Assembly: GCA_964561135.1 (NCBI GenBank)
Contig: CAZLOB010000022.1
Span: forward strand, 5,718-69,717
Source: an uncultured Elusimicrobia bacterium
Lineage (GTDB): Bacteria > Elusimicrobiota > Endomicrobiia > DTEH01
Direction: 5' to 3'
DNA length: 64,000 nucleotides
Shown here: positions 6,892-64,000 of the stretch, piece by piece
Layout of the letters: each line of letters begins with the position of its first letter
How positions within the stretch are numbered: position 1 is the first letter of the stretch
The notes under the pieces: model-generated
Told to the model about the DNA's origin: nothing
Database searches by the model: none
The model's input: the letters and a program-made list of their open reading frames with translations, nothing else
Position numbers and translations under genes: made by a program

Positions 6892-6906
6892 AAGGAGGGA
6901 AAACAA

Positions 6907-7923: not shown

Positions 7924-7929
7924 CTACTG

Positions 7930-36789: not shown

Positions 36790-37100
36790 AAATTTTTCAT
36801 CTTTCTATACCCATAGTCCTAAAAACTAATACTGAAGATTTATCATTTCCAGGGATACTTTTAGACATCTCTGCTAATGGGATAGGAATTCTTACTTTTA
36901 AAGAAATACCTGTTAACACTATTGTCAATTTACAAATTAATTTACATCAGATAAAAACTGATTGTATTAAAGCAAAAGTTGTATGGACAAAACAATTAGA
37001 TAAAACATATAGAGCTGGGTTACAATTTATAGAAATTTCAAAGAAAGATTTTGAACAAATATCAGATTATGTTGAACAACATCTAATGGAAGATTTTTGA
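36729..37100 (+). CDS. PilZ-domain protein (putative c-di-GMP receptor)
   Basis: RxxxR motif (RRKYKR) near the N-terminus and DxSxxG motif (DISANG). It overlaps the mutS 3' end by 61 nt and the mutL start by 4 nt. Confidence 0.75.
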   Translation: MEKNDRTKYTGPERRKYKRLKIFHLSIPIVLKTNTEDLSFPGILLDISANGIGILTFKEIPVNTIVNLQINLHQIKTDCIKAKVVWTKQLDKTYRAGLQFIEISKKDFEQISDYVEQHLMEDF

Positions 37101-38818: not shown

Positions 38819-39762
38819 ACAACAAAGTTGTTCTCATTGTTGGACCAACAGCTTCAGGGAAAACAGAAGTTGCTGTTGAACTTTGCCAAAAATTACCCGC
38901 TGAAATAATATCAGCTGATTCTAGACAAGTTTATAAATACTTAACAATAGGTACAAACAAACCTGTTGGTGAATGGATTGGGGAGGAATATTTGTATAAA
39001 AACATACCTTACCATTTAGTTGATTTTCTTGAGCCACACTTGTATTACGATGCAAACAGGTTTTATACTGACGCTTCATCTTTAATCAATAGAATTTGGT
39101 CAAAAAATAAAATCCCCATTGTTGTTGGTGGGACAGGGTTATATATCAAAACAATTACCGAAGGGATCACTATATTACCTAAAAAAAATGAGAAAATAAG
39201 AAATTACTTAACACAGCTTGCAATATTGTATGGAAAAAACTATCTTTATAATATGCTTAAAACTTATGACCCACAACGGGCAAAAGAAATACATCCAAAT
39301 AATACACAAAGAATAATACGTTCATTAGAAATTATTCTTCAAACAGGTAAACCTTTTACACAAATTGTTTCAGAAAATCCTAAAACAAAATCTTATGATA
39401 CAATTATCTTTGGTCTTTATTATGATAAAAAAACTTTGTTTCACAAAGTCACTGAACGTACAAAACAAATGTTTCAAATTGGTATCGTAGAAGAAACAAA
39501 ACAACTTTTAGCAAAAGGTATTAAGGAAACATCTCCTGCGTTTAGTTCTATAGGTTACCATTGGGTAATAAAATATATAAACCACGAAATCTCGTTGGAA
39601 GAAACACAAAAAAATTTTATCAAAGATACTATGGACTACATTAAACGACAATTAGTATGGTTTAAAAAAGATAAAAACATACAATGGATAAACTGTGAAG
39701 ATATGTCAATAAAACACATTGTGGAATATATTTATGAAATAATATCAAAAATTTGTTTCTAA
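38815..39762 (+). CDS. miaA: tRNA dimethylallyltransferase
   Basis: P-loop GPTASGKT and family motifs (ISADSRQVYK, GGTGLY). Confidence 0.9.
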   Translation: MNNKVVLIVGPTASGKTEVAVELCQKLPAEIISADSRQVYKYLTIGTNKPVGEWIGEEYLYKNIPYHLVDFLEPHLYYDANRFYTDASSLINRIWSKNKIPIVVGGTGLYIKTITEGITILPKKNEKIRNYLTQLAILYGKNYLYNMLKTYDPQRAKEIHPNNTQRIIRSLEIILQTGKPFTQIVSENPKTKSYDTIIFGLYYDKKTLFHKVTERTKQMFQIGIVEETKQLLAKGIKETSPAFSSIGYHWVIKYINHEISLEETQKNFIKDTMDYIKRQLVWFKKDKNIQWINCEDMSIKHIVEYIYEIISKICF

Positions 39763-39777
39763 ACAACTTATAATGCT

Positions 39778-41058
39778 ATGGAAAAAGTTGTCACTGTAGG
39801 AACAGTTTTAAAATCTGCTGGGAAAAAAGCTATTGAAGAAGAAAAAAAGTCTTTAGAAGAACTAAAAAATCTAGTTGCTACTGCGAATGGTATTGTGATA
39901 AAATCTTTTTTAGTAAAACGTGATAAAATTGACCCTGCTTATTACATCGGGAGAGGAAAAGCAGAAGAAATTAATGATTTTATTGTCCAAAACAATATTC
40001 GTACAGTTGTTTTTGATAACGAACTTTCTCCTGCACAAATAAAAAATTTAGAAGAAGTAATATCAGCAAAAATTGTAGATAGAACAAGGTTAATACTTGA
40101 CATTTTTGCACAACGAGCACATACAAAAGAAGCACAACTCCAAGTAGAACTTGCTCAACTTCAATATATGCTACCACGTCTCACTCAAAAAGGTATCTAT
40201 ATGGACAACCAAGTAGGTGGGATAGGTACAAGGGGACCCGGAGAAACAAAACTTGAATATGACAGACGTAAAATTATGCAACGTATCGAAAAAATAAAAG
40301 AAGAACTTAAAAAAGTTGTTGTTGCACGAAATGAACAAAAAAAGTTAAGAATGGAAACAAATATACCTTTAATAGCGTTAGTAGGTTACACTAATGTTGG
40401 TAAATCAACATTGTTTAACACTATTCTTAAATCTTCTTCTGCATATACAGATGACAAACTTTTTGCAACTTTAGACCCGTTAATAAGAAAAGTAGTCCTT
40501 CCTACAAAAGAAGAATTTTTGCTTGTAGACACTGTAGGGTTTATAAATAAACTGCCACATCATTTAGTAGAAAGTTTTAAGTCAACTTTAGAAATTGTTA
40601 AAGATGCAACATTATTATTAGAAATTATTGACATAACTGACGAAGATTATCATAAAAAAGAACTATTAGTAAAAAAAATTTTGGAAGAACTAAACGCAGA
40701 TAAAATTCCTATTATAAAAGTTTACAATAAAATCGATCTCTTAGATGAAAGATTACAAAAGGTATATATAAAAAAATTAAACAAAGAAAAGACAAGTGTT
40801 GTTATTTCAGCAAAGACAGGTTTTGGAATCGAAAAATTACTCAAAAAAATACTTTTCTTTATTGGACAAAATTATGTTACAAAAACAATAAATGTTCCTA
40901 ATAAATATTTTGAACTCTTGAATTTTATTAACAAACATTGCAAAGTAATTTCTTATAATATAAACCACAATCTATTAAATATAAAAATTTCAACAACAAA
41001 AGAAATTTATAATAAAATAATAAAAATGCTAAATGAATACACTGTTCACAATACCTAA
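39778..41058 (+). CDS. hflX: GTPase HflX
   Basis: HflX N-domain (LSPAQIKNLE, RTRLILDIFAQRA), G1 GYTNVGKST, G3 DTVGF and G4 NKID. Confidence 0.9.
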   Translation: MEKVVTVGTVLKSAGKKAIEEEKKSLEELKNLVATANGIVIKSFLVKRDKIDPAYYIGRGKAEEINDFIVQNNIRTVVFDNELSPAQIKNLEEVISAKIVDRTRLILDIFAQRAHTKEAQLQVELAQLQYMLPRLTQKGIYMDNQVGGIGTRGPGETKLEYDRRKIMQRIEKIKEELKKVVVARNEQKKLRMETNIPLIALVGYTNVGKSTLFNTILKSSSAYTDDKLFATLDPLIRKVVLPTKEEFLLVDTVGFINKLPHHLVESFKSTLEIVKDATLLLEIIDITDEDYHKKELLVKKILEELNADKIPIIKVYNKIDLLDERLQKVYIKKLNKEKTSVVISAKTGFGIEKLLKKILFFIGQNYVTKTINVPNKYFELLNFINKHCKVISYNINHNLLNIKISTTKEIYNKIIKMLNEYTVHNT

Positions 41059-46076: not shown

Positions 46077-46619
46077 ATGTTTAGAAAAACTTTTGTTTTT
46101 TTAAGAGTCTTAACTATATTTCTAGTATGTGTTTTACATGTTTTTTCAAAAGAGTTGCCAACAGAACTTTTGGGTTTCCAAATTAATACTGAATTAAAAA
46201 GTGTAAAAAAATCTGTACAATTAAAAAAAATCAAAAATTCGTTTGAAAAAGTTTACAAGGTTTTATATATTGAACAAAGTATTGAAACTTATCTTTATTT
46301 TTTTAATAAAAAAATTTACAAAATAATTATCTGTTTTTCTGAAAAAGTTTTTGACCAAGAAGATTGGGAAAATATTGTTAGCCAAGCAATTTCTTTGTAC
46401 GATAGACCTAAAAAAGTTTTTGTAACACACAAAAATGGTTTATCACAAGAAGTTTATCTTTGGGAAGATGAAAAAGTAAAATATATCTACAAAAAAGTTA
46501 GTAAAGAAAATAAAATACAGAATTTTAGTATAGAACTAGTAGATAAACATACTGAACAAAAAATAACACAATTGTCTTTTATAAAAAAGTTATATCTCAG
46601 ATTGATTAATTTGTTTTAA
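46077..46619 (+). CDS. hypothetical exported protein
   Basis: Signal-peptide-like N-terminus (MFRKTFVFLRVLTIFLVCVLHVFS). I recognise no family. The gene is tightly packed between purH and suhB. Confidence 0.5.
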   Translation: MFRKTFVFLRVLTIFLVCVLHVFSKELPTELLGFQINTELKSVKKSVQLKKIKNSFEKVYKVLYIEQSIETYLYFFNKKIYKIIICFSEKVFDQEDWENIVSQAISLYDRPKKVFVTHKNGLSQEVYLWEDEKVKYIYKKVSKENKIQNFSIELVDKHTEQKITQLSFIKKLYLRLINLF

Positions 46620-49257: not shown

Positions 49258-49286
49258 TTGACATATATAAAATAAATTTGTATCTT
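49258..49286 (+). promoter_or_regulatory. candidate sigma-70-type promoter upstream of queH
   Basis: Perfect -35 TTGACA (49258-49263), a 17-nt spacer, and -10 TATCTT (49281-49286). The queH ATG lies only 10 nt downstream and has no SD. Confidence 0.3.
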
Positions 49287-49295
49287 TTTATTCGT

Positions 49296-49838
49296 ATGAA
49301 CAACAATAAAGTATTGCTTCATATTTGTTGTGGAATATGCGCATTAGAATCTATAAATAGGTTACTACAGCAAAAGTATAAAGTTATAGGTTACTTTTAC
49401 AACCCTAACATTTATCCAAAAGAAGAATATCAAAAAAGATTACAAGTTGTTGAAAAAGTTGCTGAAATATACAATATTAAGATCATCTATGATAATTACG
49501 AACCTGAAGTTTGGCAAAAATTATGTGGACAATACGAAAGCGAACCTGAAGGGGGAAAAAGATGTTTATTGTGTTATGAATTAAGATTAAGAAAAACATA
49601 CAATACTATGGTAAAAGAAAATCTTGATTTATTCACTACGACACTTACTATAAGTCCACATAAAAAATCAAATATAATTTTTGAAATAGGTGAAAAAATT
49701 GGTGGTGAAAAATTTTTAAAAATTGATTTTAAAAAACATGACGGATTTAAAAAAACTATTGAACTAGCAAAACAATTCGAGTTTTATAGACAAAACTATT
49801 GTGGATGCAAATTTTCATTAAGAAAAACTATCTTATGA
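49296..49838 (+). CDS. queH: epoxyqueuosine reductase QueH (DUF208)
   Basis: Cys motifs HICCGIC, CLLCYELRL and the C-terminal NYCGC. I chose the start at ATG 49296. Confidence 0.8.
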   Translation: MNNNKVLLHICCGICALESINRLLQQKYKVIGYFYNPNIYPKEEYQKRLQVVEKVAEIYNIKIIYDNYEPEVWQKLCGQYESEPEGGKRCLLCYELRLRKTYNTMVKENLDLFTTTLTISPHKKSNIIFEIGEKIGGEKFLKIDFKKHDGFKKTIELAKQFEFYRQNYCGCKFSLRKTIL

Positions 49839-50859: not shown

Positions 50860-51606
50860 TTAAACTTTTGTAATAATGGAAAGTAAGCGGTAAGAAGTGG
50901 CATTTTTTCTAAAAGAAAAGAAAAGGTCATCATGAAAAGTACAAAAACCAGTGTTAATAATCTGCTGTTTTGAAAAACCGAAATTTAAAAGTTTTTTAAA
51001 AAGTATATCAAATAAAGAAAATTTCTCCCCATCTACATAATAACAATTCCCGCAAATATGAGGGCCTGCTATAAATAGAGTATCTTTTAAAGAAAAAGAA
51101 AGAGTATTTAGTTTCTCAAAAAGACATTCTATTATACCTTTTTGCAATCCTATTCTTCCAATATGAACAAGTCCAAACCAGCTGTTTTCTATATCCACAA
51201 CAAATAAAGGGATACAATCGGCTGTAAAAATAGCAATAATTTCTTTATTATTTTTAGAAATTATGCCATCTGTATGTAGAATTATTTTATAGTCAACCAC
51301 AAAATTTTTGAATTGTAGTTTACCAAAATAACCTTCAAAATCTGACTGATTGGTTTCTATTATTTTATTATCGTGTATTTGCTCGCACATTACCACAACT
51401 TTGTTTAAAAATATACTTGGATATTTAGTAGCAAAAGAGTACAAAGAAAGGGTTTTTTCTTTAGAAATAAAAGGGATAAAAGGAATAGACAAGTTAGCTT
51501 CTTTGGTTTCAGATATTAAATTCTTTGTTGTAGTAAGTAACAAAAAATCTTTTATTTTAAAAGATATATAATCACAATTTTCTTCATAGCTAATCATTTT
51601 CCACAA
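50860..51606 (-). CDS. pgeF: YfiH/PgeF-family (DUF152) purine nucleoside phosphorylase / peptidoglycan editing factor
   Basis: Family motifs TADCIPLFVVD, HIGRIG and HICGNCY. Confidence 0.8.
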   Translation of the reverse strand: MWKMISYEENCDYISFKIKDFLLLTTTKNLISETKEANLSIPFIPFISKEKTLSLYSFATKYPSIFLNKVVVMCEQIHDNKIIETNQSDFEGYFGKLQFKNFVVDYKIILHTDGIISKNNKEIIAIFTADCIPLFVVDIENSWFGLVHIGRIGLQKGIIECLFEKLNTLSFSLKDTLFIAGPHICGNCYYVDGEKFSLFDILFKKLLNFGFSKQQIINTGFCTFHDDLFFSFRKNATSYRLLSIITKV

Positions 51607-51613
51607 ATTCTTC

Positions 51614-52735
51614 TTAAAAACGTTCTATTATATGAGATGGCCCTCCTCCTGATTCTATACCTTTTATTGCTAACATAAGTTCCTCTGGACTTGAAGCTGC
51701 TTGTAACGCATCTTCTAACGATACTAATCCTTTTTTGAATAATTCTAACAATGCTTGGTTAAATGTTTGCATACCGTAAATTTTTCCTTGTTTCATCAAG
51801 TTTATAATATCACCCAAATTTTTTTCTTCTATACATTTTTTAACAGCTGGAGTAACTACCAAAACTTCTACTGCAGGAATTAACCCTTTTTTATCTTTTC
51901 TTGGTAGCAATCTTTGAGAAATAATACCTTTTAAAGTATCGGCAAGTTGTAAACGTACTTGGTTCTGTTGGTGTGGTGGAAATATATCTATTATTCTATT
52001 TATTGTTTGAACTGCATCAACAGTGTGAACTGTTGAAAGAACAAGATGGCCAAGTTGTGCTGCAGTAAGTGCAGCTTGCATTGTTTCAAGATCTCTCATC
52101 TCTCCAATTAAAATTACATCCGGATTTTGTCTAACAACATGTCTTAATGCTGAAACAAAAGATGTTGTATCATAAGGCACTTCTCTTTGTGATATAATCG
52201 ACTTTTTATCTTTATATACAAACTCTATAGGATCCTCAATCGTTATAATATGTGCAGGACGTGTAGAATTGATATAATCGATCATACATGCAAGTGTTGT
52301 TGATTTTCCTGAGCCTGCAGGCCCTGTAACAAGAATAAACCCACGGACATTCTCTGCAAGTTTATAAACGACTTCCGGCAAATTTAGTTCTTCTCTATTT
52401 GGTATTTGGAAAGGTATACGTCTTATAGCTATATTTATTACACCACGTTGATAAAATATATTCATTCTTAAACGAGCAATATTCTCAAAATTGTATCCTA
52501 TATCACACTCTTTCTCTAATTCAAACCTTTTTTGTTGTTGTGGCGTAGTTATATAAAGAACAAAATTTTCAATATCTTCTTTAGAAAGTATAAATTGTTG
52601 ATCTTCAATTGGCTGTAATATTCCATTTATTCTAACATATGGTACACATTCACTTCTTAAATGTAGATCGCTAGCATTAGTTTCCAAAAATTTTCTTATT
52701 ATATTAAATATTTTTTCAATATTTTTATCACTCAT
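51614..52735 (-). CDS. pilT: PilT-family type IV pilus retraction ATPase
   Basis: ASDLHL N-terminal motif, Walker A GPAGSGKST, the GEMRD Asp box and the His box TVHT. Confidence 0.9.
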   Translation of the reverse strand: MSDKNIEKIFNIIRKFLETNASDLHLRSECVPYVRINGILQPIEDQQFILSKEDIENFVLYITTPQQQKRFELEKECDIGYNFENIARLRMNIFYQRGVINIAIRRIPFQIPNREELNLPEVVYKLAENVRGFILVTGPAGSGKSTTLACMIDYINSTRPAHIITIEDPIEFVYKDKKSIISQREVPYDTTSFVSALRHVVRQNPDVILIGEMRDLETMQAALTAAQLGHLVLSTVHTVDAVQTINRIIDIFPPHQQNQVRLQLADTLKGIISQRLLPRKDKKGLIPAVEVLVVTPAVKKCIEEKNLGDIINLMKQGKIYGMQTFNQALLELFKKGLVSLEDALQAASSPEELMLAIKGIESGGGPSHIIERF

Positions 52736-52738
52736 AAA

Positions 52739-53851
52739 CTACCTCAACACACGTAATTTACCAGTTCTAAAAAACTTTTGTTGGATTTCTTTTTCTTCTA
52801 AAATAGCATCTTCTTTATCTACAACTATTTCGGTTTTGGTACGTAACGATCTTAATGTTTTTTTAGATTTTGTTTTTTCAACCATTTGGAACCCACTTGC
52901 GATAATCGTAACTTCAACTTTATCTTCAAAATCATTAGAATTTACATATCCTATATAAGTCACGACTTCTTTATCCATATAATGTTGTAAATATTCAAAC
53001 GCATTATAAACATCGTGCCCTGTTATATTTTTCCCACAAATATTTACTAACAAATTTTTTGCACTACGAATATCAAATTCTATAAATGGATTATTCATAG
53101 CATTTTTTATTGCTTTTTTTAAACAGCTTTCAGCACTTGCTTTTTCTACACCATACGACATAATTATCTGGCCTGCATTTTTTAATACATTTCTTGCATC
53201 AGCATAATCAACATTGACATACCCTGGTTGTGTCACAACTTTCCACATACTTAACACCGCTTTGTGTAAAACATCATCTGCTAATCTATATAAAACTTCA
53301 CCAAAACTTAAATTAGGATACATTTCTAAAAATTTATTGTTTGGTATAGTCAATAAAGCATCAACATATTTTTTTAATTCTGTGATTCCTGTAATTGCAT
53401 TATCCATTCTTATTTTTCCTTCGAAGTCGAAAGGTTTTGTTACAACAGCCACTGTTAAAACACCCAATTCTTTAGCCACTCTTGCAATAACAGGTGTTGC
53501 ACCAGTCCCCGTCCCTTTCCCCATACCACAGGTTAAAAACACCATATCTGTATGTGTCAATAAGTCACGAATTATATCTATTGATTCTTCCGCAGCCTGT
53601 TTCCCAACAAGCGGATCTCCTCCAGACCCTTGTCCTTTTGTAGTTTTTGGACCTATATGTATAACAATTGGCGCTTTTGACTCTTTTAAAGCTTGCAGAT
53701 CTGTGTTGATAGCGATCATTTCTACAGAAGGATCAATAAGACCAGCAGTAGCGATTCTATTTATAGCGTTCCCTCCTGCACCACCAATCCCCATTATTTT
53801 TATTCTTACAGGATATTTTTTTGTAACAATATTGTCATCCATAGAAATCAC
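52739..53851 (-). CDS. ftsZ: cell division protein FtsZ
   Basis: GIGGAGGNAINR, NTDLQAL, GMGKGTGTGATPV, VVTKPFDFEG and NVDYAD. The conserved ftsQ-ftsA-ftsZ order is present. Confidence 0.95.
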   Translation of the reverse strand: MISMDDNIVTKKYPVRIKIMGIGGAGGNAINRIATAGLIDPSVEMIAINTDLQALKESKAPIVIHIGPKTTKGQGSGGDPLVGKQAAEESIDIIRDLLTHTDMVFLTCGMGKGTGTGATPVIARVAKELGVLTVAVVTKPFDFEGKIRMDNAITGITELKKYVDALLTIPNNKFLEMYPNLSFGEVLYRLADDVLHKAVLSMWKVVTQPGYVNVDYADARNVLKNAGQIIMSYGVEKASAESCLKKAIKNAMNNPFIEFDIRSAKNLLVNICGKNITGHDVYNAFEYLQHYMDKEVVTYIGYVNSNDFEDKVEVTIIASGFQMVEKTKSKKTLRSLRTKTEIVVDKEDAILEEKEIQQKFFRTGKLRVLR

Positions 53852-55143
53852 TCCCCAAAAAAACTCCAGATTTTACGAAAGAAACCTTTTATCCCTTTTG
53901 ACTGTTTTTTCCCTTTAAAAGGTTTTTTTTGACTTTCTATTTCGTATTTTATCAAACTTATTGAAGTAGTATAAGAAAAATTAGAAATAATATCTTCATC
54001 TCCCACAATAGAACTCTCCATACCTACATTTCCTGCACGAACATCAATACTTTCTTCAAGATCACTATATTCACTTTTTAACAACTCACGTAACGCGTCA
54101 GTAATACCCACCAAATTTCCCCCACCACCTGCTAAAACAACATCTCCATACTGTAGTGCTAACTCAACATAATGAATTTTTTTCAACTCGGGGATAACAA
54201 TGTCTAAAAAAATCTTTTCAATAACTTCAGCAATAATTTTTGCTATTTCTTTTTTTGTTGTAGTTCTAATATTTTTACCATCTCTGGATGGTATCTCAAC
54301 TTGTTCATCTTTTTTCACTGATGACGGTTGTGCAACACCATAACGACGTTTTATATTCTCTGCTACATTCCAAGATGTTTTATAATAAGCTGCAATTTCT
54401 CTCGTTATAAGGTCCGCTCCTAAATCAATATCTTTACTTTGAAACTCTCTACAATATCTTATGCATCCACCTAAATATACCACAGTCCCTATTGATTGTC
54501 CACCAAAATCTATTACTAAACAACCTAAATTACGTTCTTCAGCTTCCGTAACCAACTGTGCTAAAGAAATTAAACCATAATGTAAATTATCAATTACATA
54601 ACCAGCTTCCGTAAAAGTTCGTTCTATGTTCCTTATAAAACTTGAATATCCAACAATTGCATAAGCTTTTACTTCTAGAATACTTCCTTCCATATTAACA
54701 GGATTTGAAATTCCAGGTTGACCATCGATAATATACTCTTGAGGTATAATATTCATTATTAAACGATCATTCGAAATTCTTAAATTTTTTACTGCATGTT
54801 CAATAACTTTTTCTTGATCTTCAAAAGTAATTGTTCGATCAGTTGAGGTAATAGGAATTTGTGCTGAAGTTTCATAAGTACTTACAAACGGCCCTCTCAC
54901 ACCAACAATAAGTTTTGTCCTTTCAACTTTTGCCATATCTTCTAATGATGAAATCAACTCGTTTATAAGAGCAGCACTTCTCTCAATATCTTTAATTACA
55001 CCTGCAGAAATTGCTTCTTTATCGACTAACTGTTTACCTGCAATAATTTCTATAATTTCTTGTTCAGGATCGTACTTTCCTAAAACACCTGTAACACAAC
55101 CTGAACCTATATCAACCCCACAATAAATTTCTTCTTTTGGCAT
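53848..55143 (-). CDS. ftsA: cell division protein FtsA
   Basis: Actin-fold motifs (GVDIGSG, DFGGQS, LAGGGG) and a C-terminal amphipathic helix (GIKGFFRKIWSFF). Confidence 0.9.
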   Translation of the reverse strand: MPKEEIYCGVDIGSGCVTGVLGKYDPEQEIIEIIAGKQLVDKEAISAGVIKDIERSAALINELISSLEDMAKVERTKLIVGVRGPFVSTYETSAQIPITSTDRTITFEDQEKVIEHAVKNLRISNDRLIMNIIPQEYIIDGQPGISNPVNMEGSILEVKAYAIVGYSSFIRNIERTFTEAGYVIDNLHYGLISLAQLVTEAEERNLGCLVIDFGGQSIGTVVYLGGCIRYCREFQSKDIDLGADLITREIAAYYKTSWNVAENIKRRYGVAQPSSVKKDEQVEIPSRDGKNIRTTTKKEIAKIIAEVIEKIFLDIVIPELKKIHYVELALQYGDVVLAGGGGNLVGITDALRELLKSEYSDLEESIDVRAGNVGMESSIVGDEDIISNFSYTTSISLIKYEIESQKKPFKGKKQSKGIKGFFRKIWSFFGE

Positions 55144-55199
55144 TTTTATTCTCCAAAAAAGAAATTATTTAAAATTTTTAAATATAAAATTATTAAGTT

Positions 55200-55970
55200 T
55201 TATTCAATATATGCCTTTCCATAGGATAATAACTGTGTATAAATTCTTGTGTTTTTATCAAATTTATATTTTATCAATTTAGATAGCATCTCTTTTTTTA
55301 CATTCTCAAATTTTTTGTCAACAATAAAATAAAGAATACAATTATCTTCCTCTCCACGGACACAAACAACATATTTATTGTTTTCTTTTCTAATTTTTTC
55401 AACTTTATCCCAAACATTAGCTTCACTAAATTTTTGATAGATAATCTTTAATGTTGGAATATCCACTTCGCCTTCTATATATGGCAGTTTAGCTAAATTA
55501 ATTTTTCTAGCATCATAAACTTTATACCATTTTATATCACTGGACAGAAACAAAATTCCATCATCAATTCCCTTTTTGTAACCTATTGGAGAAAAAGTAT
55601 GAATTTTAATTTTTAAAGGTTTTGTTGGAAAAAACATAATTTTTATCTCTTTAATTTCAGGAAAAACTTTTTGTAGTTTAAGAATATTTTTTTTATAATT
55701 AAAAACATCAAGATGTTCCGCATTTAGTTGTTTATAAATAATTTCGTCTGGTACTGTTGATTTGTTCTCGCATAAGTATACTTTTTGTATTTTAAAAACT
55801 TCATACTTAAAAACTTCATACAAAGATTTAACTTTACTTATTTTATAAACAACAAAAATCAAAATTGTTAAACAAGCTGTAGCCAATAAAAATCTGAAAA
55901 CAATTTTAAATTTTTTCTTTTTCTTATTTTTTTTCTTTACCAAAATGTTGAATGAATAATATCTACTCAT
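55200..55970 (-). CDS. ftsQ: cell division protein FtsQ/DivIB-like
   Basis: A basic N-terminus, a single TM helix and a POTRA-like region. Its position between ddl and ftsA supports the call, but sequence similarity is weak. Confidence 0.7.
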   Translation of the reverse strand: MSRYYSFNILVKKKNKKKKKFKIVFRFLLATACLTILIFVVYKISKVKSLYEVFKYEVFKIQKVYLCENKSTVPDEIIYKQLNAEHLDVFNYKKNILKLQKVFPEIKEIKIMFFPTKPLKIKIHTFSPIGYKKGIDDGILFLSSDIKWYKVYDARKINLAKLPYIEGEVDIPTLKIIYQKFSEANVWDKVEKIRKENNKYVVCVRGEEDNCILYFIVDKKFENVKKEMLSKLIKYKFDKNTRIYTQLLSYGKAYIE

Positions 55971-56925
55971 ATTTTTTAAATGACACGAAGACTATTTTTC
56001 TTACAAGCTCAGCAAAAGATATACCTTGATACTTAGCAGCTTCAGGCAATAAAGATGTCTCAGTCATACCAGGGACAGTGTTTACTTCTAACACATATGG
56101 TATTTTTTTTCTTTCATCAAAAATAGTATCTACTCTGCACAAAATTTCACACCCTATTAATTTTGCAGTTTTCAAAGCAATATTTTTAATTTTTTCATAT
56201 GAAATTTTATCAATTCTTGGTGGTATTAAATGTTGTGATCCCCCAGGCTGATATTTTGATTTATAGTCATAAAATCTGTTTAACTTTGGGATGATTTCTA
56301 TCAAAGGTAAAACTTCACCATCTAAAATAGGGACAGTTATTTCTTTTCCATTTATAAATTTTTCTATAATAATAACATTATCATACTTTAACGCATTTTT
56401 TACTGCAGGAATTAAATTTTTGTAATTATTCACGATAGAAGTGCCAATAGTTGAACCCTCACGTGCAGGTTTCACTACTAATGGAAAACCAAAATTTTTT
56501 TCTTTAACGAAATAAAAATTTTTTTCATCAATATCTTTTTTAATTTTAGAAAAGTTTAATACTTTAAAATCAGGTGTGGGTATTCCGTTATCTTTTAATA
56601 AAAGTTTTGTAAGATATTTATTCATTCCTATCATTGACGCTTCAACACCACAACCAGTATATTTAAGCCCTATATTCTCAAGTAACATTTGCAATTTACC
56701 ATCTTCACCAAATTTTCCATGTAATGCTATAAAAATAATATCGACTTTTTTCTTTTTTAATTTAAGTAATTGATTTACACAATGTTCTTTTTTAATATCA
56801 ATTAAAGAAACTTTAAAATCCTGCCATTTAGATAAGTTGTTAAACACAGCTTTACCAGTTTTCAAACTTATTTCTCGTTCAGAAGAGAAGCCACCACACA
56901 GTACCGCTATTTTGATCTTCCTCAT
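55963..56925 (-). CDS. ddl: D-alanine--D-alanine ligase
   Basis: ATP-grasp enzyme with the CGGFSSEREISL, ALHGKFGEDG and EVNTVPGMT motifs. Confidence 0.9.
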   Translation of the reverse strand: MRKIKIAVLCGGFSSEREISLKTGKAVFNNLSKWQDFKVSLIDIKKEHCVNQLLKLKKKKVDIIFIALHGKFGEDGKLQMLLENIGLKYTGCGVEASMIGMNKYLTKLLLKDNGIPTPDFKVLNFSKIKKDIDEKNFYFVKEKNFGFPLVVKPAREGSTIGTSIVNNYKNLIPAVKNALKYDNVIIIEKFINGKEITVPILDGEVLPLIEIIPKLNRFYDYKSKYQPGGSQHLIPPRIDKISYEKIKNIALKTAKLIGCEILCRVDTIFDERKKIPYVLEVNTVPGMTETSLLPEAAKYQGISFAELVRKIVFVSFKKYE

Positions 56926-57854
56926 TATAACTCTACCCCAACAAAAGTTATTTCAGGCTGAAGTTCAATTTTATATTTTTCTTTCACAACTTTGATAATA
57001 TGCCGGATAAGATTTACAAAATCTTCACAAGTAGCATTATTTTTGTTTATAATAAAATTTGCATGTTTTTCTGAAACACAAGCCCCACCAATTGAAAAAC
57101 CTTTTAGTCCAGCAGATTCTATTAACTTTGCAGCAGTAAGTTCTGTTTCATATGGATTTTTAAAGATACAGCCAGCGTTAAAAGTACCTAAAGGTTGTGT
57201 CTGTATACGTTGAAGTAAAGCTTCGTTAAGCCGTTTTTTAATTAATTCTTTATCTTCTTTTTTAAGGCGAAAATGAGCAGATACAACTACATACTTGTTT
57301 TGTAACCCACTATTTCTGTATCCAAAATCTATCTGTTCTTTATACAATTTTATTATTCCTTGTTCAGGATCATCAATTTTAACAACTTCAATATATTCTA
57401 AACAATCAGATATTGTAGCTGTTTTTGTTCCAGCATTCATTATTATAGCGCCACCAACACTACCCGGTATTCCAAAAAGTTCTTCTAATCCAGATAAAGA
57501 ATGTTCTACAGTTGTATTTATCAATGAAGGTAACATCGTGGCTGAATATGCAATAACTTTTTCTTCTTCTATATTTACTGTAGAAAAATCTTTCTTTAGT
57601 TTAATTACAACACCATCAAAACCTTTGTCAGAAACTAACAAGTTTGACCCTGCACCAATGACAAAAATTTTTTCGTTATAAAATTTTATTATGGATAAAA
57701 CATCAATAAGTTGCGATATATTTTCTACATAGACAAAATATTTCGCAGGACCACCTATGTTTAATGTTGTGTGTTTATTTAACTTTTCATTAAGAACTAC
57801 ATTAATATTATGTTTTTTAAATGTTGTTATTATCTTATCTCCCATAATATTCAA
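56925..57854 (-). CDS. murB: UDP-N-acetylenolpyruvoylglucosamine reductase
   Basis: FAD-binding domain (TLNIGGPA, GAGSNLL) and a GCIFKNP-type motif in the C-terminal domain. Confidence 0.9.
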   Translation of the reverse strand: MNIMGDKIITTFKKHNINVVLNEKLNKHTTLNIGGPAKYFVYVENISQLIDVLSIIKFYNEKIFVIGAGSNLLVSDKGFDGVVIKLKKDFSTVNIEEEKVIAYSATMLPSLINTTVEHSLSGLEELFGIPGSVGGAIIMNAGTKTATISDCLEYIEVVKIDDPEQGIIKLYKEQIDFGYRNSGLQNKYVVVSAHFRLKKEDKELIKKRLNEALLQRIQTQPLGTFNAGCIFKNPYETELTAAKLIESAGLKGFSIGGACVSEKHANFIINKNNATCEDFVNLIRHIIKVVKEKYKIELQPEITFVGVEL

Positions 57855-59223
57855 TTAATTTATCTGCAATTTTGTATACATCACCTGCACCTAAAGTTAA
57901 AACAACGCTATCTTCAGCTAAATTTTTTAGATAGTTTACCAATCTGTCAAAATTATACATTTCAACATTATAACCATTTTTTACAAACTCGTCATATACT
58001 AATTTTATATTCACTCCTTCTATTGGTTTTTCATTAGCAGGATATATTTGTACAAGGAAAACTTTATCTTTATGTGAAAAAGCTTTCGGAAATTCTTTAT
58101 AAAGAAGTTGTGTACGTGTGTATCTATGTGGTTGGAAAACAACAACTATTTTTTTATTATTTGTTTTTATTCTTAATGTTTGAAGAGTATAATAAATTTC
58201 GGTTGGATGATGACCATAATCATCATAAACATCAATTACCTTATCATCAATAGCTATTTGCCCTTTAAATTCAATTCTACGTTTTATACCATCAAAACTT
58301 TCCAAAGCAGATTTTATATCTGAAAAATTAAACCCGCAAACAATACCTAAAGAAATTGTTGCTAACGCGTTCAATACGTTATGAATACCAGTCGTATTTA
58401 ACAATACTTTCCCTACCAATTTGTCATTTTTATATACTACAAACCTTGAAAAATTTGGTTTTAACTCAATATTTTTTGCAACAAAGTCATTGTTTCCATT
58501 TTTTATTCCATAAGTGTAATATTTTCTTTTAATTTTAGGTAATAACGAACAAATTCTTTTATCATCTCCATAAAGAATACTAAAGCCATAAAACGGAACA
58601 GAATTGAAATGTTGTAAAAACGCTTGTTTTAGATTATTCATAGATCCATAGTTGTCTAAATGGTCATTATCTATATTTGTGCAAACAACAATATAAGGTG
58701 ACAGATGTAAAAAAGAGCCATCACTTTCATCCGCTTCAACAACAATAAATTTACCCTTTCCAATTTTTGCTGACGAACCAATGTTTTTTAATATCCCACC
58801 GACAACTATTGTGGGATCATATCCACATTGTTGTAGTAGTAATCCTATCATTGAAGTTGTTGTTGTTTTTCCATGTGTACCACAAATACTTATTGTATAT
58901 TTCATTCTTGCAATTTCTACTAACATTTCAATACGAGGAATCACAGGAATGTTTCTTTTCTTTGCAGCAACTATTTCAGGATTATTCTCTTTTATTGCCG
59001 TGGAATAAACAACAACATCTACATCATTAACATTAGTAGCTTTATGGCCAATAAAAACTTTTGCACCTAATTTTTTTAATCTCTCTATCACGACAGAATT
59101 TTTTATATCAGACCCTGAAACTTGATATCCCAAATTAAGCAAAACTTCTGCGATACTGCTCATCCCACTGCCACCAATACCAATAAGATGTACTTTTTTT
59201 ACTTTATTAAATATTTCCTCCAT
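57835..59223 (-). CDS. murC: UDP-N-acetylmuramate--L-alanine ligase
   Basis: GIGGSGMS, GTHGKTTTT and full-length Mur ligase architecture. Confidence 0.95.
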   Translation of the reverse strand: MEEIFNKVKKVHLIGIGGSGMSSIAEVLLNLGYQVSGSDIKNSVVIERLKKLGAKVFIGHKATNVNDVDVVVYSTAIKENNPEIVAAKKRNIPVIPRIEMLVEIARMKYTISICGTHGKTTTTSMIGLLLQQCGYDPTIVVGGILKNIGSSAKIGKGKFIVVEADESDGSFLHLSPYIVVCTNIDNDHLDNYGSMNNLKQAFLQHFNSVPFYGFSILYGDDKRICSLLPKIKRKYYTYGIKNGNNDFVAKNIELKPNFSRFVVYKNDKLVGKVLLNTTGIHNVLNALATISLGIVCGFNFSDIKSALESFDGIKRRIEFKGQIAIDDKVIDVYDDYGHHPTEIYYTLQTLRIKTNNKKIVVVFQPHRYTRTQLLYKEFPKAFSHKDKVFLVQIYPANEKPIEGVNIKLVYDEFVKNGYNVEMYNFDRLVNYLKNLAEDSVVLTLGAGDVYKIADKLIEYYGR

Positions 59224-59225
59224 TT

Positions 59226-59624
59226 TTATTTTGACTCTCTTTTAACTATAGTTTTAATACCACCACGAAGGTTAAACTCAAGTTCTACATACAACCATTT
59301 TGGTTTTAACAATTTATTTAAATCTTCAAAAATTTGGTTCACTGCGGACTCGTGTACAATATGTACATTGCGATAACTTTGAATGTAATACTTTAGAGAC
59401 TTTAACTCAACACATACTTTATTTGGTACATATTTTATTCTAAGTGTTGCAAAATCGGGAAGGTTATTCCATGGACATAAACATGTAAATTCTTGCGTTT
59501 CAATTTCTATTGTTATATCTTTCCCTTTATATTCGTATTCTAGTGGTATTAACAACTCTGGCGAAATTTTATCAAATTTCACTGACAAATTCTTTATTCT
59601 ATCATATAATTCTACTTTTTTCAT
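59226..59624 (-). CDS. queF: NADPH-dependent 7-cyano-7-deazaguanine (preQ0) reductase, unimodular type
   Basis: Catalytic Cys context [13 protein letters not shown] and the QueF motif ELKSLKYY. The start overlaps the upstream stop as TAATG. Confidence 0.85.
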
Positions 59625-60817
59625 TAATTAAAAATTTCTGTTACAATAAATTTTAAATATTCTGTTTCATCTTTCATCGGAAAATATATAGGATGATCTT
59701 CTGATTGTGTCCCATAATATATTATAAAACCTTTTTGTTCGTTTTTCAACATAGAAGATAAAATCAACTCTTCTATATCTTCCAACGAAATGTGTCTACT
59801 GCACACAGAAAAAGCTAAAAGTCCGTTGTTTGTTAACAATTTCATAATCTGTGATAAGACAAATTTATATTTCTTTTTTGCAGGATTAACATCTTTATCA
59901 GATTTTGCATATGATGGTGGATCAAAAATTATTAAATCAAACTTTGTTTTATTCTCTTGGATGAAATCTTCAATTTTTGCGCAAACAAACTCAACTTTGA
60001 CTTTATTTATTTTAGCATTTTCTTTTGCAAGTTCTATCGCATATGAAGACGAATCTACACCAATAACATTCTTGCAACCTGATAAAGCACAAATTACACC
60101 AAATGAACCTGTATAACAGCATAAATCAAGAACATTTTTATCATTAGCGATACAAGATATATATTTTCTGTTTTCAAATTGATCATAATAAAAACCTGTT
60201 TTTTGCCCATTTAAAACATCAACAACAAATTTTGCATTCAAATGTTCAATAACAGTTATTAATTCATTAGTAATTTTATTTTTTGAATAAACAACTTCTT
60301 TATATTTTGGTGCGACTTCAAGTTCTCGTTGGTAAATATCGTTGTTTACAACAATAAATTTTGGATTAAAAATATCTATTAAACAACTAAAAATTTCGTT
60401 TTTAAACAACTCCATTGCATAAGAAAAAAACTGTATAACAAAAATATCTCCGTATCTATCTATTACTACACCCGGTAAAAAATCACTCTCTCCATAAACA
60501 ATTCTACAGTACTTTATATTTATTCCATACTTCTTTCTTCTTTCTATTGCATTCTTTATTCTTTTATAAAAAAAATCTTTATTGATTTTTTCCTCTCTTC
60601 TTTGTGAAAGAATACGAATAGAAATTAAAGAATGTGGATTATATACACCTTTACACAAAAAATTATCTTTGTGATCATATACTTCGACAAAAGAAATTTG
60701 TTTTGTTAAGTTTTTATGTTCAATTTCATTAGAAAAAATCCATAAGTATCCATTTTTAACTCTGTTTTTAAATTGTTTTGAAACTTTAATTTTTATAGGT
60801 TCAACATAATTATTCAT
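59624..60817 (-). CDS. RlmI-like PUA-domain class I SAM-dependent (cytosine-C5) RNA methyltransferase
   Basis: N-terminal PUA-like region, the QKTGFYYDQ motif, FDPPSY and a catalytic-type Cys (SVCS). At about 397 aa it matches RlmI/RlmK-type enzymes. Confidence 0.8.
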
Positions 60818-61631
60818 ATACTAACCAAAATTCTGATGATGTCAAATCAATTTTGTTTTTTAGAAACTCGTATGCATTAGCTTTGTTTATTGCAACTTCA
60901 ATATATCCGATAGAATTAACGTATGCTAAAAATTCTTTTTCTTTTACATCTGCATAACATTTTTTAATTTTGGCCTTAAACATAGGTTTATTTTTATAAC
61001 AAATTGTAAGATAATATCTCTCAATTTTGTTTTTATTTAATACTTCTTCAGGTAAAGATGTAATGATATTCCCGAAACTATCACTAAAAAGATATTTTCC
61101 AACAACAATTTTTTTATTACCAAGTTTTTTTATTTCATAAGAAAAGTTTTGTAGTGTTATAATTTTTGATTTTTCAAATTTTTCACAAATTTTTTTAATA
61201 GGCACATTTTTAGATATATAAGCACCTACAGGTGAAAAAATATCCCGTCCATGGAAAGTATTACTTATTTTAGGTAAAAAAAATTTTGTGTTAACTATTT
61301 TATAAACTGAATAATTTTTTTCTTTATCTATCACTTTTGTTATTAATCCATTATTGGGTACAATAAAAACATAAAATCTTGTCTTTATCAAAAGTATTTC
61401 TCTTTCACTTCCTACTCCAGGGTCAACTACACATACAAAAATACTTCCTCTCGGAAAAAACTCATAAGATTTTGCAAGGATAACTGATGCTTGTAGAACA
61501 TTTTGTGGTGCAATATTATGACAAAGATCAATTATTTCTGCATTAGGATTTATCTTTTTAATTACTCCTTTCATTTGGCCAATATAAAAGTCGTTATTGA
61601 AATCTGTCAACAAAACAATAGGCCTTTTCAT
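60810..61631 (-). CDS. DUF62-family SAM hydrolase (SAM hydroxide adenosyltransferase-like)
   Basis: LLTDF, GQMKGVI, VVDPGVG and SNTFHGRDIFSPV motifs, typical of the fluorinase/chlorinase-related DUF62 family. Confidence 0.8.
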   Translation of the reverse strand: MKRPIVLLTDFNNDFYIGQMKGVIKKINPNAEIIDLCHNIAPQNVLQASVILAKSYEFFPRGSIFVCVVDPGVGSEREILLIKTRFYVFIVPNNGLITKVIDKEKNYSVYKIVNTKFFLPKISNTFHGRDIFSPVGAYISKNVPIKKICEKFEKSKIITLQNFSYEIKKLGNKKIVVGKYLFSDSFGNIITSLPEEVLNKNKIERYYLTICYKNKPMFKAKIKKCYADVKEKEFLAYVNSIGYIEVAINKANAYEFLKNKIDLTSSEFWLVYE

Positions 61632-62335
61632 TTTATATAATACAAGGTCCTGTGTAACTGAGGAATTATATGTATTGATGGTACATATCTTTTTGCTTTC
61701 CTAAAAATTTCAACAAGATTAAAAAAAAGTTTTCTATTTCTTTTTTTTAATGCTGAAGTTTCCGGCTGTAATACCAAAATTTTTGGTTTTGCATTTTTTA
61801 AAAGATGACAAATTTTTTTTAATGTATTTTTTTTATACCACGCTCTCCCACAAACCACCATCTTTATAAAAAACTTCTTATTTTTATTCTTACATAAACT
61901 AATAACTTTTTCAGCTTCACGCAGTGTATTTTTTTTATTTAAATCATCATCTGGAATTTTGACATTAACTGCGCAAACATCTATAAGATCTATTATTTTT
62001 TCAAATTGGTTTAATGATGAAGCATTTGTTTCTAAATAAATTTTTACTCTACAATTTTTTATAATCTCTTTTATAAAAAACGGTAGATCTTTTTGTAGCA
62101 AAGGTTCACCACCTGTTAAACTTATAAACTCAGGTCTATATTTTTTAACATATTCCAAAACTTTTTTAACAGCAACATTTAATTCAACTTTATCCTTTGA
62201 TGAAACTTTTTTTGCATATTTTGTATCACAATAACAACAACTAAGATTACATCCTGCAAACCTTACAAACACCGTTGGGCAACCAATATAAGGACCTTCA
62301 GCTTGGTAAGAAAAGAAAATTTCTTTAATGTTCAT
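61628..62335 (-). CDS. queE: 7-carboxy-7-deazaguanine synthase (radical SAM)
   Basis: QAEGPYIG and Cx3Cx2C (CNLSCCYC). It sits in a queD-queC-queE context. Confidence 0.85.
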   Translation of the reverse strand: MNIKEIFFSYQAEGPYIGCPTVFVRFAGCNLSCCYCDTKYAKKVSSKDKVELNVAVKKVLEYVKKYRPEFISLTGGEPLLQKDLPFFIKEIIKNCRVKIYLETNASSLNQFEKIIDLIDVCAVNVKIPDDDLNKKNTLREAEKVISLCKNKNKKFFIKMVVCGRAWYKKNTLKKICHLLKNAKPKILVLQPETSALKKRNRKLFFNLVEIFRKAKRYVPSIHIIPQLHRTLYYIK

Positions 62336-63000
62336 TTTTTATCCAATGGATCAACAAGCCCTGCTTTTTTAAACCCCATTTTACGAAACCTGCAAGAGTC
62401 ACAACTTCCACAAGGTCTTTTTGCACCTTTATAACAACTCCATGTGTTTTGCAAAGGGACACCAAGTTTTACTGCTAATTTAACAATTTCTTCTTTTGTC
62501 AAATTGATAAGTGGAGCAACAATTTTTATTTTTTTACCACTTACACCCTTCTTTGTTCCAACATTTATCATTTTTTGGAAAGCGTCAACAAACTCTTGCC
62601 TACAGTCAGGATATCCAGAAAAATCAATTTGGTTTGCTCCAAAAAAAATGTAATTAGCATCTATTACTTCTGCCAAAGATGTTGCAAACGATAAAAATAT
62701 TATATTTCTTGCAGGAACATAAGTTAACGGGATTACATTTTTGTGTTTGCTTTTAGTCAACTTAAGTTTTTTATTAATTAACGAACTACCTTTCCAAGGT
62801 AGACCAAATTTTACAACATAGTATTTCAACCCTAAACTTTTAGCAATTTTTTTTGCACAATAAATTTCTTTTTTATGTCTTTGTCCATAGTCAAATATAA
62901 GGCACACAGGCTTATATCCTTGCTTAATTACATAATAAAGAGTGGTAGTAGAATCTAACCCGCCAGAAAGTAAAACAACACATTTTTTATTCTTCTTCAT
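62332..63000 (-). CDS. queC: 7-cyano-7-deazaguanine synthase
   Basis: PP-loop LLSGGLDS and the C-terminal Zn motif CGSCDSC. Confidence 0.9.
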   Translation of the reverse strand: MKKNKKCVVLLSGGLDSTTTLYYVIKQGYKPVCLIFDYGQRHKKEIYCAKKIAKSLGLKYYVVKFGLPWKGSSLINKKLKLTKSKHKNVIPLTYVPARNIIFLSFATSLAEVIDANYIFFGANQIDFSGYPDCRQEFVDAFQKMINVGTKKGVSGKKIKIVAPLINLTKEEIVKLAVKLGVPLQNTWSCYKGAKRPCGSCDSCRFRKMGFKKAGLVDPLDKK

Positions 63001-63373
63001 AACTCGCGTACTGGGTTGGTGTTTCCCACACGATAACCTTTATTTTTTGTATATTTTTATATTTTAAAAGTTTCTCTTTTAATTTTTCGTATATAAACTT
63101 TGCAATATTTTCTGCAGTTGGTTGATTATTTTTAAAAAATGGAAGGTTGTTTAAATATTTATGGTCTAACTGGTATAAAATTTTGTTCAAAACTTTTTTT
63201 AATTTCACAAAATCTATTACCATTTGTTGAGTGTTTAACTTTGTAGATGAAACGATAACCCCTACTTTCCAATTATGTCCATGTAGATTCTCACATTTAC
63301 CTTTATATAATTTCAAATGATGTGCAGCAGAAAAACTGTTTTCTACATATACTTCAAATTTATTCACTTTCAT
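62987..63373 (-). CDS. queD: 6-carboxy-5,6,7,8-tetrahydropterin synthase
   Basis: PTPS fold with FSAAHHL and the CENLHGHNW motif. 128 aa. Confidence 0.9.
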   Translation of the reverse strand: MKVNKFEVYVENSFSAAHHLKLYKGKCENLHGHNWKVGVIVSSTKLNTQQMVIDFVKLKKVLNKILYQLDHKYLNNLPFFKNNQPTAENIAKFIYEKLKEKLLKYKNIQKIKVIVWETPTQYASYEEE

Positions 63374-64000
63374 TCAATTTTAACTTTTTTAACATATTTT
63401 ATTTCTTGACCTAATAACAACGATCCTATTTTTTTAAAACTTTCAGGATTGTCAGAAACAAAAAATTTATATTTTGGTTTGTTATTCCTAAATTTACACA
63501 ATTTATTTTCTTCAAGAATTTTTTTAACTTCTTTTGCTGTTTCTAACGACGAATCCACAACAGTAACATTTTTACCAATTATATCTTGAATTATATTTTT
63601 TATTGCAGGATAATGAGTACAACCTAATACTAAAACATCAATACCAAAATTTTTTAAAGGTGCTAAATACTCAGCTGATAGTTGTCTTAAAATATTTTCA
63701 TGGTTTATTGTTTGATAATAGTCACTATTTATAAGTTGAAGTTTATCAATCCATCCTTCTTCTATTAAAGGGACAAACAAAGGTGTTGGTTGGCAAAAAA
63801 TTTTTGCCTTATTACAAATTTTTTTAATCGCTTTTATATATGATTTGCTTTTTATAGTTGCTTTTGTACCGATTACTCCAATTTTATAATTTTTTGTGTA
63901 TTCAACAGCAGCCCTAGCACCAGGAGTGACAACTTCTACTATTTTGAGATTTTTAAACATTTTTTTTAACATTGGGATAGCATATGATGATGAAGTATTA
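63370..64000 (-). CDS. murI: glutamate racemase, C-terminal part (5' end outside window)
   Basis: The frame is open to the window edge (..NTSSSYAIPML..). It has the second catalytic Cys context (LVLGCTHYP). The start is not in the window. Confidence 0.85.
   Translation of the reverse strand, partial: NTSSSYAIPMLKKMFKNLKIVEVVTPGARAAVEYTKNYKIGVIGTKATIKSKSYIKAIKKICNKAKIFCQPTPLFVPLIEEGWIDKLQLINSDYYQTINHENILRQLSAEYLAPLKNFGIDVLVLGCTHYPAIKNIIQDIIGKNVTVVDSSLETAKEVKKILEENKLCKFRNNKPKYKFFVSDNPESFKKIGSLLLGQEIKYVKKVKIE

Follow-up and report, generated by a model that had tools for sequence, protein, structure and literature searches.

Why should the genes for preQ1 synthesis lie in the middle of a peptidoglycan and cell division operon, and why should they be interrupted by genes for an S-adenosyl-L-methionine (SAM) hydrolase and an RNA methyltransferase? 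The question is raised by a stretch of 64,000 nucleotides (nt), here called the window, from an uncultured Elusimicrobia bacterium of the lineage Endomicrobiia (GenBank assembly GCA_964561135.1, contig CAZLOB010000022.1, positions 5,718 to 69,717). A six-frame list of its open reading frames (ORFs) contains the minus-strand series murI, queD, queC, queE, DUF62, a gene for a PUA-domain methyltransferase (MTase), queF and murC. A preliminary description of this locus, whose gene order, gene identities and junction lengths were all reproduced with the ORF list, Pfam and NCBIfam, had proposed co-regulation of the genes, and possibly a functional tie of SAM turnover or RNA methylation to 7-deazaguanine synthesis, with hitch-hiking in a compact genome as the null hypothesis. 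We find that the null hypothesis fits best, because the genes form one inherited block with a variable slot and lack any association outside the phylum. The locus is likely to be an Elusimicrobiota-specific housekeeping super-operon, in which the que genes and their companions hitch-hike in a conserved mur/fts operon and most likely share expression, not a pathway.

Searches for homologues put the window within the class Endomicrobiia or close to it. The preliminary description had considered that the arrangement might be confined to this genome. In fact, the identical order amidase-murI-queD-queC-queE-DUF62-MTase-queF-murC-murB-ddl-ftsQ-ftsA-ftsZ is present in eight Endomicrobiia loci (L001, L003/L004, L005/L006, L088, L090 and L093), and parts of it occur across the Elusimicrobiota. 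Protein identity in the loci with this order goes down to about 50%, with that of the DUF62 protein falling to 49-51%. In five of the eight, synteny reaches upstream to fliG-motA-motB and a histidine kinase, and the conserved block therefore spans at least 17 kb, from fliG/motAB to ftsZ. Since this whole block is syntenic, linkage of any gene pair inside it carries no independent information. Deeper lineages retain amidase-murI-queC-queE-...-methyltransferase.

The gene content directly after queE differs between lineages. In the window and the eight loci of the same order, queE is followed by DUF62, the MTase gene and queF. In L087, the order after queE is NTPase_1 (PF03266), DUF62 and queF, without the MTase gene, and in L091 it is NTPase_1, the MTase gene and queF, without DUF62. 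In the high-GC Elusimicrobia loci L141 and L173, the MTase gene is followed by murC, and the cluster is without queD, queF and DUF62. Finally, in L174 the series NTPase_1, CorA and MTase leads into an ATP synthase operon on the opposite strand, and murC is not downstream. The NTPase_1 gene is of the THEP1 type, a family of poorly known function. It encodes 181-199 amino acids (aa) and lies directly after queE (L087, 7441-8028; L091, 7391-7990; L174, 6361-6906). This gene is absent from the clade of the window and is, in this sample, as persistent beside queC-queE as DUF62.

Two further Elusimicrobia loci, L092 and L175, have the MTase gene in another context (AsmA/DUF748-phosphoribosyltransferase- ... 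-MTase), without que genes. In L092, a distant contig, DUF62 lies one gene upstream of the RlmI-like MTase gene, with a gene for a response regulator in the same group (6635-9179) and neither que nor mur genes in the vicinity. The flanking genes are syntenic in L175, but where L092 has DUF62 this contig has genes for a major facilitator superfamily (MFS) transporter and for adenylosuccinate lyase.

In a neighbour-joining tree of concatenated MurI, QueC and QueE, rooted on the high-GC loci, the loci with the architecture of the window all fall into a single clade, whose sister is the pair L087 and L091, and L174 branches below them. The tree is a simple distance tree of few loci. Read in the most parsimonious way, and with this small sample in mind, it makes the MTase gene the oldest resident beside queE, present before the Elusimicrobiota classes diverged. 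On the same parsimonious reading, queD, queF and DUF62 would have joined on the Endomicrobiia stem, and NTPase_1, DUF62 or the MTase gene would later have been lost in single lineages, again as judged from few loci and simple distances. The preliminary description had spoken of two genes inserted between queE and queF. This holds for their position, but not for their history, since the MTase gene appears to be older in the tree, and queF and DUF62 appear to have come later.

Outside the phylum, the linkage disappears. An alignment-based scan with one genome per GTDB species gave 80 DUF62 loci spread over many phyla of Bacteria and Archaea, and their flanks, 1.14 Mb in all, were searched with the window proteins by tblastn. 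An adjacent que gene was found in none of the 80 loci, and the MTase in none of the 80. A que gene lies within 10 kb in two of them, L029 (4.5 kb) and L077 (queC, 9.3 kb). This is roughly the chance level, which we estimate at one to two loci for genomes of some megabases that each contain a small number of que loci. In L029, which has the closest DUF62 of this set outside the phylum, queC-queF lie upstream and are separated from DUF62 by five unrelated genes, and this proximity was judged coincidental. Clustering of three genes on each side did not reveal a conserved neighbour family of DUF62, as none occurred in more than 5 of 77 loci; the commonest, in 5 of 77, was a generic response regulator. 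The lack of a conserved neighbour in about 77 loci from many phyla fits a general role in cofactor repair, although this role is still debated.

For the MTase, metagenomes were scanned with an alignment of its homologues, which yielded 80 loci and 0.66 Mb of flanking DNA. Two of these loci, L093 and L141, are from Elusimicrobiota. Neither que genes nor DUF62 occur near the MTase in the remaining 78, of which 31 have at least 2 kb on both sides. As many contigs are short, this test is weaker than the one from the DUF62 side. In a published study of the genes around canonical QueC, queD and queE are the neighbours named as frequent; the main text makes no mention of a methyltransferase, SAM hydrolase, DUF62 or PF01887, and the supplement has no entry for PF01887, PF10672, PF17785 or PF03266 (PMC13329287). 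The co-occurrence of DUF62 or RlmI-like genes with que genes across genomes, which the preliminary description had suggested looking for, thus has no support in the loci sampled outside the phylum. With a single inherited arrangement, a variable slot and no linkage elsewhere, there is no support for a biochemical tie between 7-deazaguanine synthesis and either SAM turnover or RNA methylation.

The close packing of the genes does not alter this picture. Successive genes from murI through queF overlap by 4, 14, 4, 4, 8 and 1 nt, beginning with the murI stop, which overlaps the queD start by 4 nt; queF is separated from murC by 2 nt, and murC and murB overlap by 20 nt. The window as a whole is 97% coding, with a median gap of 2 nt over 63 co-directional junctions. 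Outside the cluster, 21 of 55 junctions are overlapping and 39 of 55 (71%) have 10 nt or less. Overlaps are thus a little more frequent in the cluster than on average, yet the series is not exceptional in this genome. Overlap is the normal state here and is therefore, by itself, no sign of a functional tie.

The same compactness makes co-regulation of the tightly coupled genes likely, as had been proposed, because intergenic gaps are missing, no terminator-like site was seen and promoter-like matches are at chance level. Specifically, a scan found no terminator-like site on the minus strand within 50-64 kb, and 89 promoter-like matches in this region compare with 84.5 expected from shuffled sequence. 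With promoter matches at chance and no terminators, the scan is unable to show whether the string is divided into separate units. One long transcription unit is the simplest inference from the absent gaps and the terminator scan. A search of the whole window with Rfam at gathering thresholds gave two tRNAs only and thus no riboswitch, and there is no leader region for the que genes, because queD overlaps murI.

The housekeeping super-operon may then be pictured as follows. A peptidoglycan and division string of the type amidase-murI ... murC-murB-ddl-ftsQ-ftsA-ftsZ carries the preQ0/preQ1 genes mid-way and, directly after queE, a short variable slot, which in this genome is taken up by DUF62 and the RlmI-type MTase. 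QueD, QueE, QueC and QueF would turn dihydroneopterin triphosphate (H2NTP) into preQ1, and the DUF62 enzyme would hydrolyse SAM to adenosine and methionine. One long message with coupled translation is probable because the genome is extremely compact, and the genes would share constitutive, growth-linked expression without a preQ1 riboswitch. The juxtaposition would be maintained by vertical inheritance within a strongly conserved operon and by genome compaction.

Several observations weigh against so plain an explanation. Of the eight junctions from murI to murB, seven overlap, compared to 38% elsewhere in the window. The MTase gene is found beside queC-queE across a deep divergence (33% identity; genomic GC content of about 29% versus about 70%), and it stayed there through the breakpoint that removed murC downstream in L174. 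Purely neutral linkage might be expected to decay over such a divergence. Moreover, L087 keeps DUF62 between queE and queF although the MTase gene is gone, and in L092, from another Elusimicrobia lineage, DUF62 is one gene from the MTase gene in an unrelated context. Not one of these observations adds independent evidence from beyond the phylum. The persistence of the MTase, L087 and L092 keep two minority readings alive, one centred on SAM quality and the other on the target of the MTase.

The first minority reading, which we regard as unlikely though the better of the alternatives, is that DUF62 has been kept in order to clear inhibitory (R)-SAM in the vicinity of the co-encoded QueE and MTase (QueA is encoded elsewhere), so that the linkage would be based on a cofactor. 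DUF62 enzymes are selective for (R)-SAM, and deletion of the gene raises the share of (R)-SAM in archaea (bioRxiv 10.1101/2025.08.29.672840). DUF62 comes directly after queE in every locus with the order of the window and also lies between queE and queF in L087; it is near the MTase gene in two contexts, that of the window type and that of L092; and in L089 it comes after a gene for a 364-aa radical-SAM protein. However, outside the phylum DUF62 is not associated with que genes, the MTase or any gene family. ORFs with a CxxxCxxC motif, a crude proxy for radical-SAM proteins, are not enriched beside DUF62 (1 of 145 immediate neighbours versus 11 of 683 distant ORFs, Fisher p = 0.70). The slot is without DUF62 in L091, L141, L173 and L174, the physiological role of (R)-SAM hydrolysis has been disputed (PMC12120602), and a diffusible cofactor gives little reason for genes to be adjacent.

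The second minority reading, more doubtful than the first, takes the MTase not as an rRNA enzyme but as a queuosine (Q)-linked RNA methyltransferase, acting on cytosine in the tRNAs that receive Q or on RNA modified with 7-deazaguanine. This would explain why the MTase has travelled with queC-queE since before the Elusimicrobiota class split. Of the five architectures, four have the MTase gene in the slot behind queE; these span 33% identity and include one without murC downstream. The product of the gene scores below every NCBIfam RlmI-type equivalog cut-off, which formally leaves room for another target, and a precedent for Q-dependent methylation of cytosine to 5-methylcytosine (m5C) exists in eukaryotes (PMC5372726), where Q and Dnmt2 cross-talk at m5C38. 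Against this stand the identity of about 40% over the full length to annotated rRNA methyltransferases from many phyla, with all family-invariant residues kept, and the absence of que genes from all 78 family loci outside the Elusimicrobiota. In addition, the homologues in L092 and L175 are in a different context without que genes, and L087 has que genes without the MTase. The two minority readings could also be combined, with a Q-linked MTase and a DUF62 enzyme that was recruited in the Endomicrobiia and cleans SAM for QueE, QueA and the MTase. This one-operon bacterial counterpart of the eukaryotic Q-m5C cross-talk seems about as improbable to us as the Q-linked MTase taken alone. If a minority reading were true, an RlmI-family enzyme would have a target not known before, or (R)-SAM hydrolases would have gained a physiological client.

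DUF62 and the MTase gene might also have entered a standard queDCEF operon of this genome together, as a cassette acquired horizontally in recent times. This would account for a pair that interrupts a unit of four genes compact in Bacillus subtilis, and for the slightly lower GC content at 60-62 kb (0.251 versus about 0.28 in the neighbours), but it is very improbable and was rejected on the grounds of conserved synteny. Relatives with protein identities as low as about 50% have the genes in this order, and the pair has diverged in step with the flanking genes. Moreover, the MTase gene occupies the slot in lineages without queF and DUF62, the junctions of the pair are overlaps of 4, 8 and 1 nt, and neither repeats nor mobile-element genes flank it.

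Proteins were assigned with Pfam and with NCBIfam equivalog models that have curated cut-offs, and the coordinates are collected in the table. The que genes, DUF62 and the MTase gene, all six, look intact and canonical. QueD, QueC and QueF score above their NCBIfam cut-offs (TIGR03367, 103 bits versus 89.25; TIGR00364, 228 versus 150.3; TIGR03139, 135 versus 86.9). For QueE, the top three NCBIfam models are QueE subfamilies with 82-94 bits, each below its cut-off (206-300). The protein has Radical_SAM and Fer4_12 domains, with the CxxxCxxC motif present as CNLSCCYC, and the assignment is supported by the location of the gene between queC and queF. It is a QueE of the short type, the best NCBIfam matches including Clostridium and B. 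subtilis QueE subfamily types.

Table. Coordinates of the que, mur and fts genes and of their neighbours in the window.
Gene or product	Position	Strand	Assignment and remarks
murI (glutamate racemase)	63370..64000, runs past window end	-	NF002035 match, model positions 89-265 of 267
queD, 6-carboxytetrahydropterin synthase	62987..63373	-	PF01242, E = 7.8e-44; TIGR03367
queC, 7-cyano-7-deazaguanine (preQ0) synthase	62332..63000	-	PF06508, E = 1.4e-75; TIGR00364
queE, radical-SAM 7-carboxy-7-deazaguanine synthase	61628..62335	-	best family matches and gene context
DUF62 / SAM hydroxide adenosyltransferase (SAM hydrolase)	60810..61631	-	PF01887, PF20257
RlmI-like PUA-domain class I SAM-dependent RNA (m5C-type) methyltransferase	59624..60817	-	PUA_3, Methyltrans_SAM
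queF, unimodular NADPH-dependent preQ0 reductase (preQ1 synthase)	59226..59624	-	PF14489, E = 4.5e-30; TIGR03139
murC	57835-59223	-	
murB	56925-57854	-	
ddl	55963-56925	-	
ORF in ftsQ position, 256 aa	55200-55970	-	no Pfam family at thresholds used
ftsA	53848-55143	-	
ftsZ	52739-53851	-	
T2SSE-family ATPase	51614-52735	-	
Cu-oxidase_4 family protein	50860-51606	-	last of gene string murC to Cu-oxidase_4 (50860..59223)
queH, epoxyqueuosine reductase	49278..49838	+	PF02677, E = 1.1e-59; outside the operon

The DUF62 protein carries both the SAM_HAT_N and the SAM_HAT_C domain of Pfam, with scores above the cut-offs (PF01887, E = 3.9e-50, 169.8 bits; PF20257, E = 2.2e-16, 60.4 bits). Its best NCBIfam matches are two '(R)-S-adenosyl-L-methionine hydrolase' models with 147 and 145 bits, for which the cut-offs of 350 and 470 are not reached. 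All 36 positions that are invariant in an alignment of 20 sequences from bacteria and archaea are kept. The invariant residues include D70, R77 and H127, the catalytic Asp-Arg-His triad, which correspond to the DPGVG..R and TFHGRD motifs of Pyrococcus horikoshii PH0463 in an alignment; the two proteins match over the full length (E = 1e-36). A His-Arg-Asp triad is the mark that sets DUF62 hydrolases apart from the fluorinase/chlorinase branch (review, PMC10491745). The protein thus resembles PH0463, Salinispora StDUF62 and the Sulfolobus and Haloferax SAM hydrolases (SAMH) in having both Pfam domains and the Asp-Arg-His triad, but differs from the characterised DUF62 hydrolases in scoring below the equivalog cut-off (147 versus 350); the descriptions of those enzymes consulted here give no que-gene context.

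Published work on DUF62 enzymes reports selectivity for the (R)-sulfonium epimer of SAM, which is biologically inactive (bioRxiv 10.1101/2025.08.29.672840; PMC12120602; PMC10491745), and in both Sulfolobus and Haloferax the share of (R)-SAM rose when the gene was deleted (bioRxiv 10.1101/2025.08.29.672840). One group questions whether the enzymes serve this purpose in the cell (PMC12120602). The cleavage of SAM to adenosine and methionine, which the preliminary description had attributed to DUF62 enzymes, can be retained, but has to be updated by the reported specificity for (R)-SAM and a role in cofactor repair. By analogy with characterised homologues, the probable substrate of the window enzyme is this inactive epimer, which arises spontaneously from SAM. 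In L089 (5095-7866), DUF62 lies between the gene for the 364-aa radical-SAM protein and a dethiobiotin-synthase-like gene (CbiA/AAA_26), and the DUF62 protein groups with hits named Brocadiales/Scalindua. This single case may reflect a biotin-synthesis context.

The MTase has a PUA_3 domain (66 bits) and a Methyltrans_SAM domain of the PF10672 type (57 bits). Its best NCBIfam models are the 23S rRNA C1962 and C2499 m5C methyltransferases, both matched below cut-off (NF053718, 226 versus 575; NF011707 (RlmI), 182 versus 712), so that the equivalog level is not reached. As the score is under every equivalog cut-off, the target nucleotide is not fixed by the family match. D299-P300-P301 and C339-S340 are invariant in 17 homologues; the DPP and Cys motifs are catalytic motifs of m5C RNA methyltransferases. 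Along its entire length, the protein shares about 40% identity with homologues from many phyla whose annotation is class I rRNA methyltransferase or RlmI, and the nearest solved structures are PH1915 (2as0), E. coli RlmI/YccW (3c0k) and Thermus homologues. It is most likely, by analogy with the closest characterised relatives, that the enzyme methylates a cytosine in 23S rRNA. In terms of architecture, it is like the RlmI/RlmO family (YccW, T. thermophilus TTHA1280 and TTHA1493, PH1915), with a PUA and a class I methyltransferase domain, the DPP and Cys-Ser motifs and a match over the full length. Unlike this family, it falls below the equivalog cut-offs and is linked to queC-queE within the Elusimicrobiota, a linkage seen in 0 of 78 loci outside.

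The que part of the locus can be compared to the B. subtilis queCDEF (ykvJKLM) operon, a compact preQ1 operon. In both cases, genes for QueC, QueD, QueE and a unimodular QueF are on one strand in one gene string. In contrast to the Bacillus operon, the order here is queD-queC-queE ... queF, with two unrelated genes between queE and queF, there is neither a preQ1 riboswitch nor a dedicated promoter region, and the set is embedded in a mur/fts operon. The distal murC-murB-ddl-ftsQ-ftsA-ftsZ part is in the canonical order of the division and cell wall (dcw) cluster (mraZ ... murG-murC-murB-ddl-ftsQAZ). However, there is no murG or ftsW upstream of murC; this place is taken by the que genes, the MTase gene, DUF62, murI and, as seen in the relatives, an amidase gene. 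murA is apart from the operon, at 14145-15428. The components are all of known families, and it is the architecture that is new: a que cluster without riboswitch inside a wall and division operon, with a variable slot after queE, specific to the Elusimicrobiota. In the library that was searched, 'queuosine' together with 'Endomicrobi' did not give a match. The architecture should be useful in annotating uncultured Elusimicrobiota genomes, and it is a cautionary case, in that linkage conserved inside one phylum is not evidence of shared function.

The proximity of queE to division genes recalls the moonlighting of E. coli QueE, since queE is here 3.8 kb upstream of the start of ftsQAZ in one gene string. 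E. coli QueE can block septation, which requires an enterobacterial-specific region that the QueE proteins of B. subtilis and P. aeruginosa do not have (PMC11142719). A role of QueE as a division regulator that explains the position of the locus was therefore rejected, and the proximity is best taken as coincidence until shown otherwise.

At the upstream end of the series, murI is cut at its 5' end by the window edge, because the NCBIfam match begins only at model position 89 of 267. The ATG at 63972 in the ORF list is therefore not where the gene really starts, and murI in relatives encodes 283-290 aa. Downstream, the Elusimicrobiota relatives share the order of the genes from murC to Cu-oxidase_4. 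The counterparts of the ORF in the ftsQ position are without a Pfam hit in the Endomicrobiia relatives, and the one in L173 has a weak FtsQ_DivIB_C hit. Near 50-51 kb, the GC skew changes sign and the gene orientation switches (convergent), which fits a replication terminus. queH, which the preliminary description had located about 10 kb away across the terminus, is at 49278-49838 on the plus strand. The putative terminus is only about 2 kb past the end of the ftsZ-containing string, and the mur/fts/que operon thus adjoins it. A Pfam scan of the non-overlapped window ORFs of at least 100 aa did not find a TGT, QueA or GTP cyclohydrolase I family, in line with the earlier statement that folE, tgt and queA are absent from the window.

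Other features of the window concern RNA modification and translation. A gene for a MiaB/RimO-type radical-SAM methylthiotransferase lies at 32790-34085 (+) and is followed by mutS-pilZ-mutL-miaA-hflX at 34087-41058 (+), and a prmC-like methyltransferase gene comes after prfA (13295-14140). With such genes across the window, SAM-dependent enzymes are scattered and not clustered near DUF62. The ORF at 46077-46619 (+), of 180 aa, is without a Pfam family at the thresholds used. Finally, prfB (RF2-like, 3220-4342, +) has an apparent programmed +1 frameshift: a short ORF from the ATG at 3220 ends with GGAGATTTTCTT TAA C (3281-3297), beyond which the main ORF is read on in the +1 frame. The E. coli prfB frameshift site uses TGA as the in-frame stop, where the prfB of the window has TAA.

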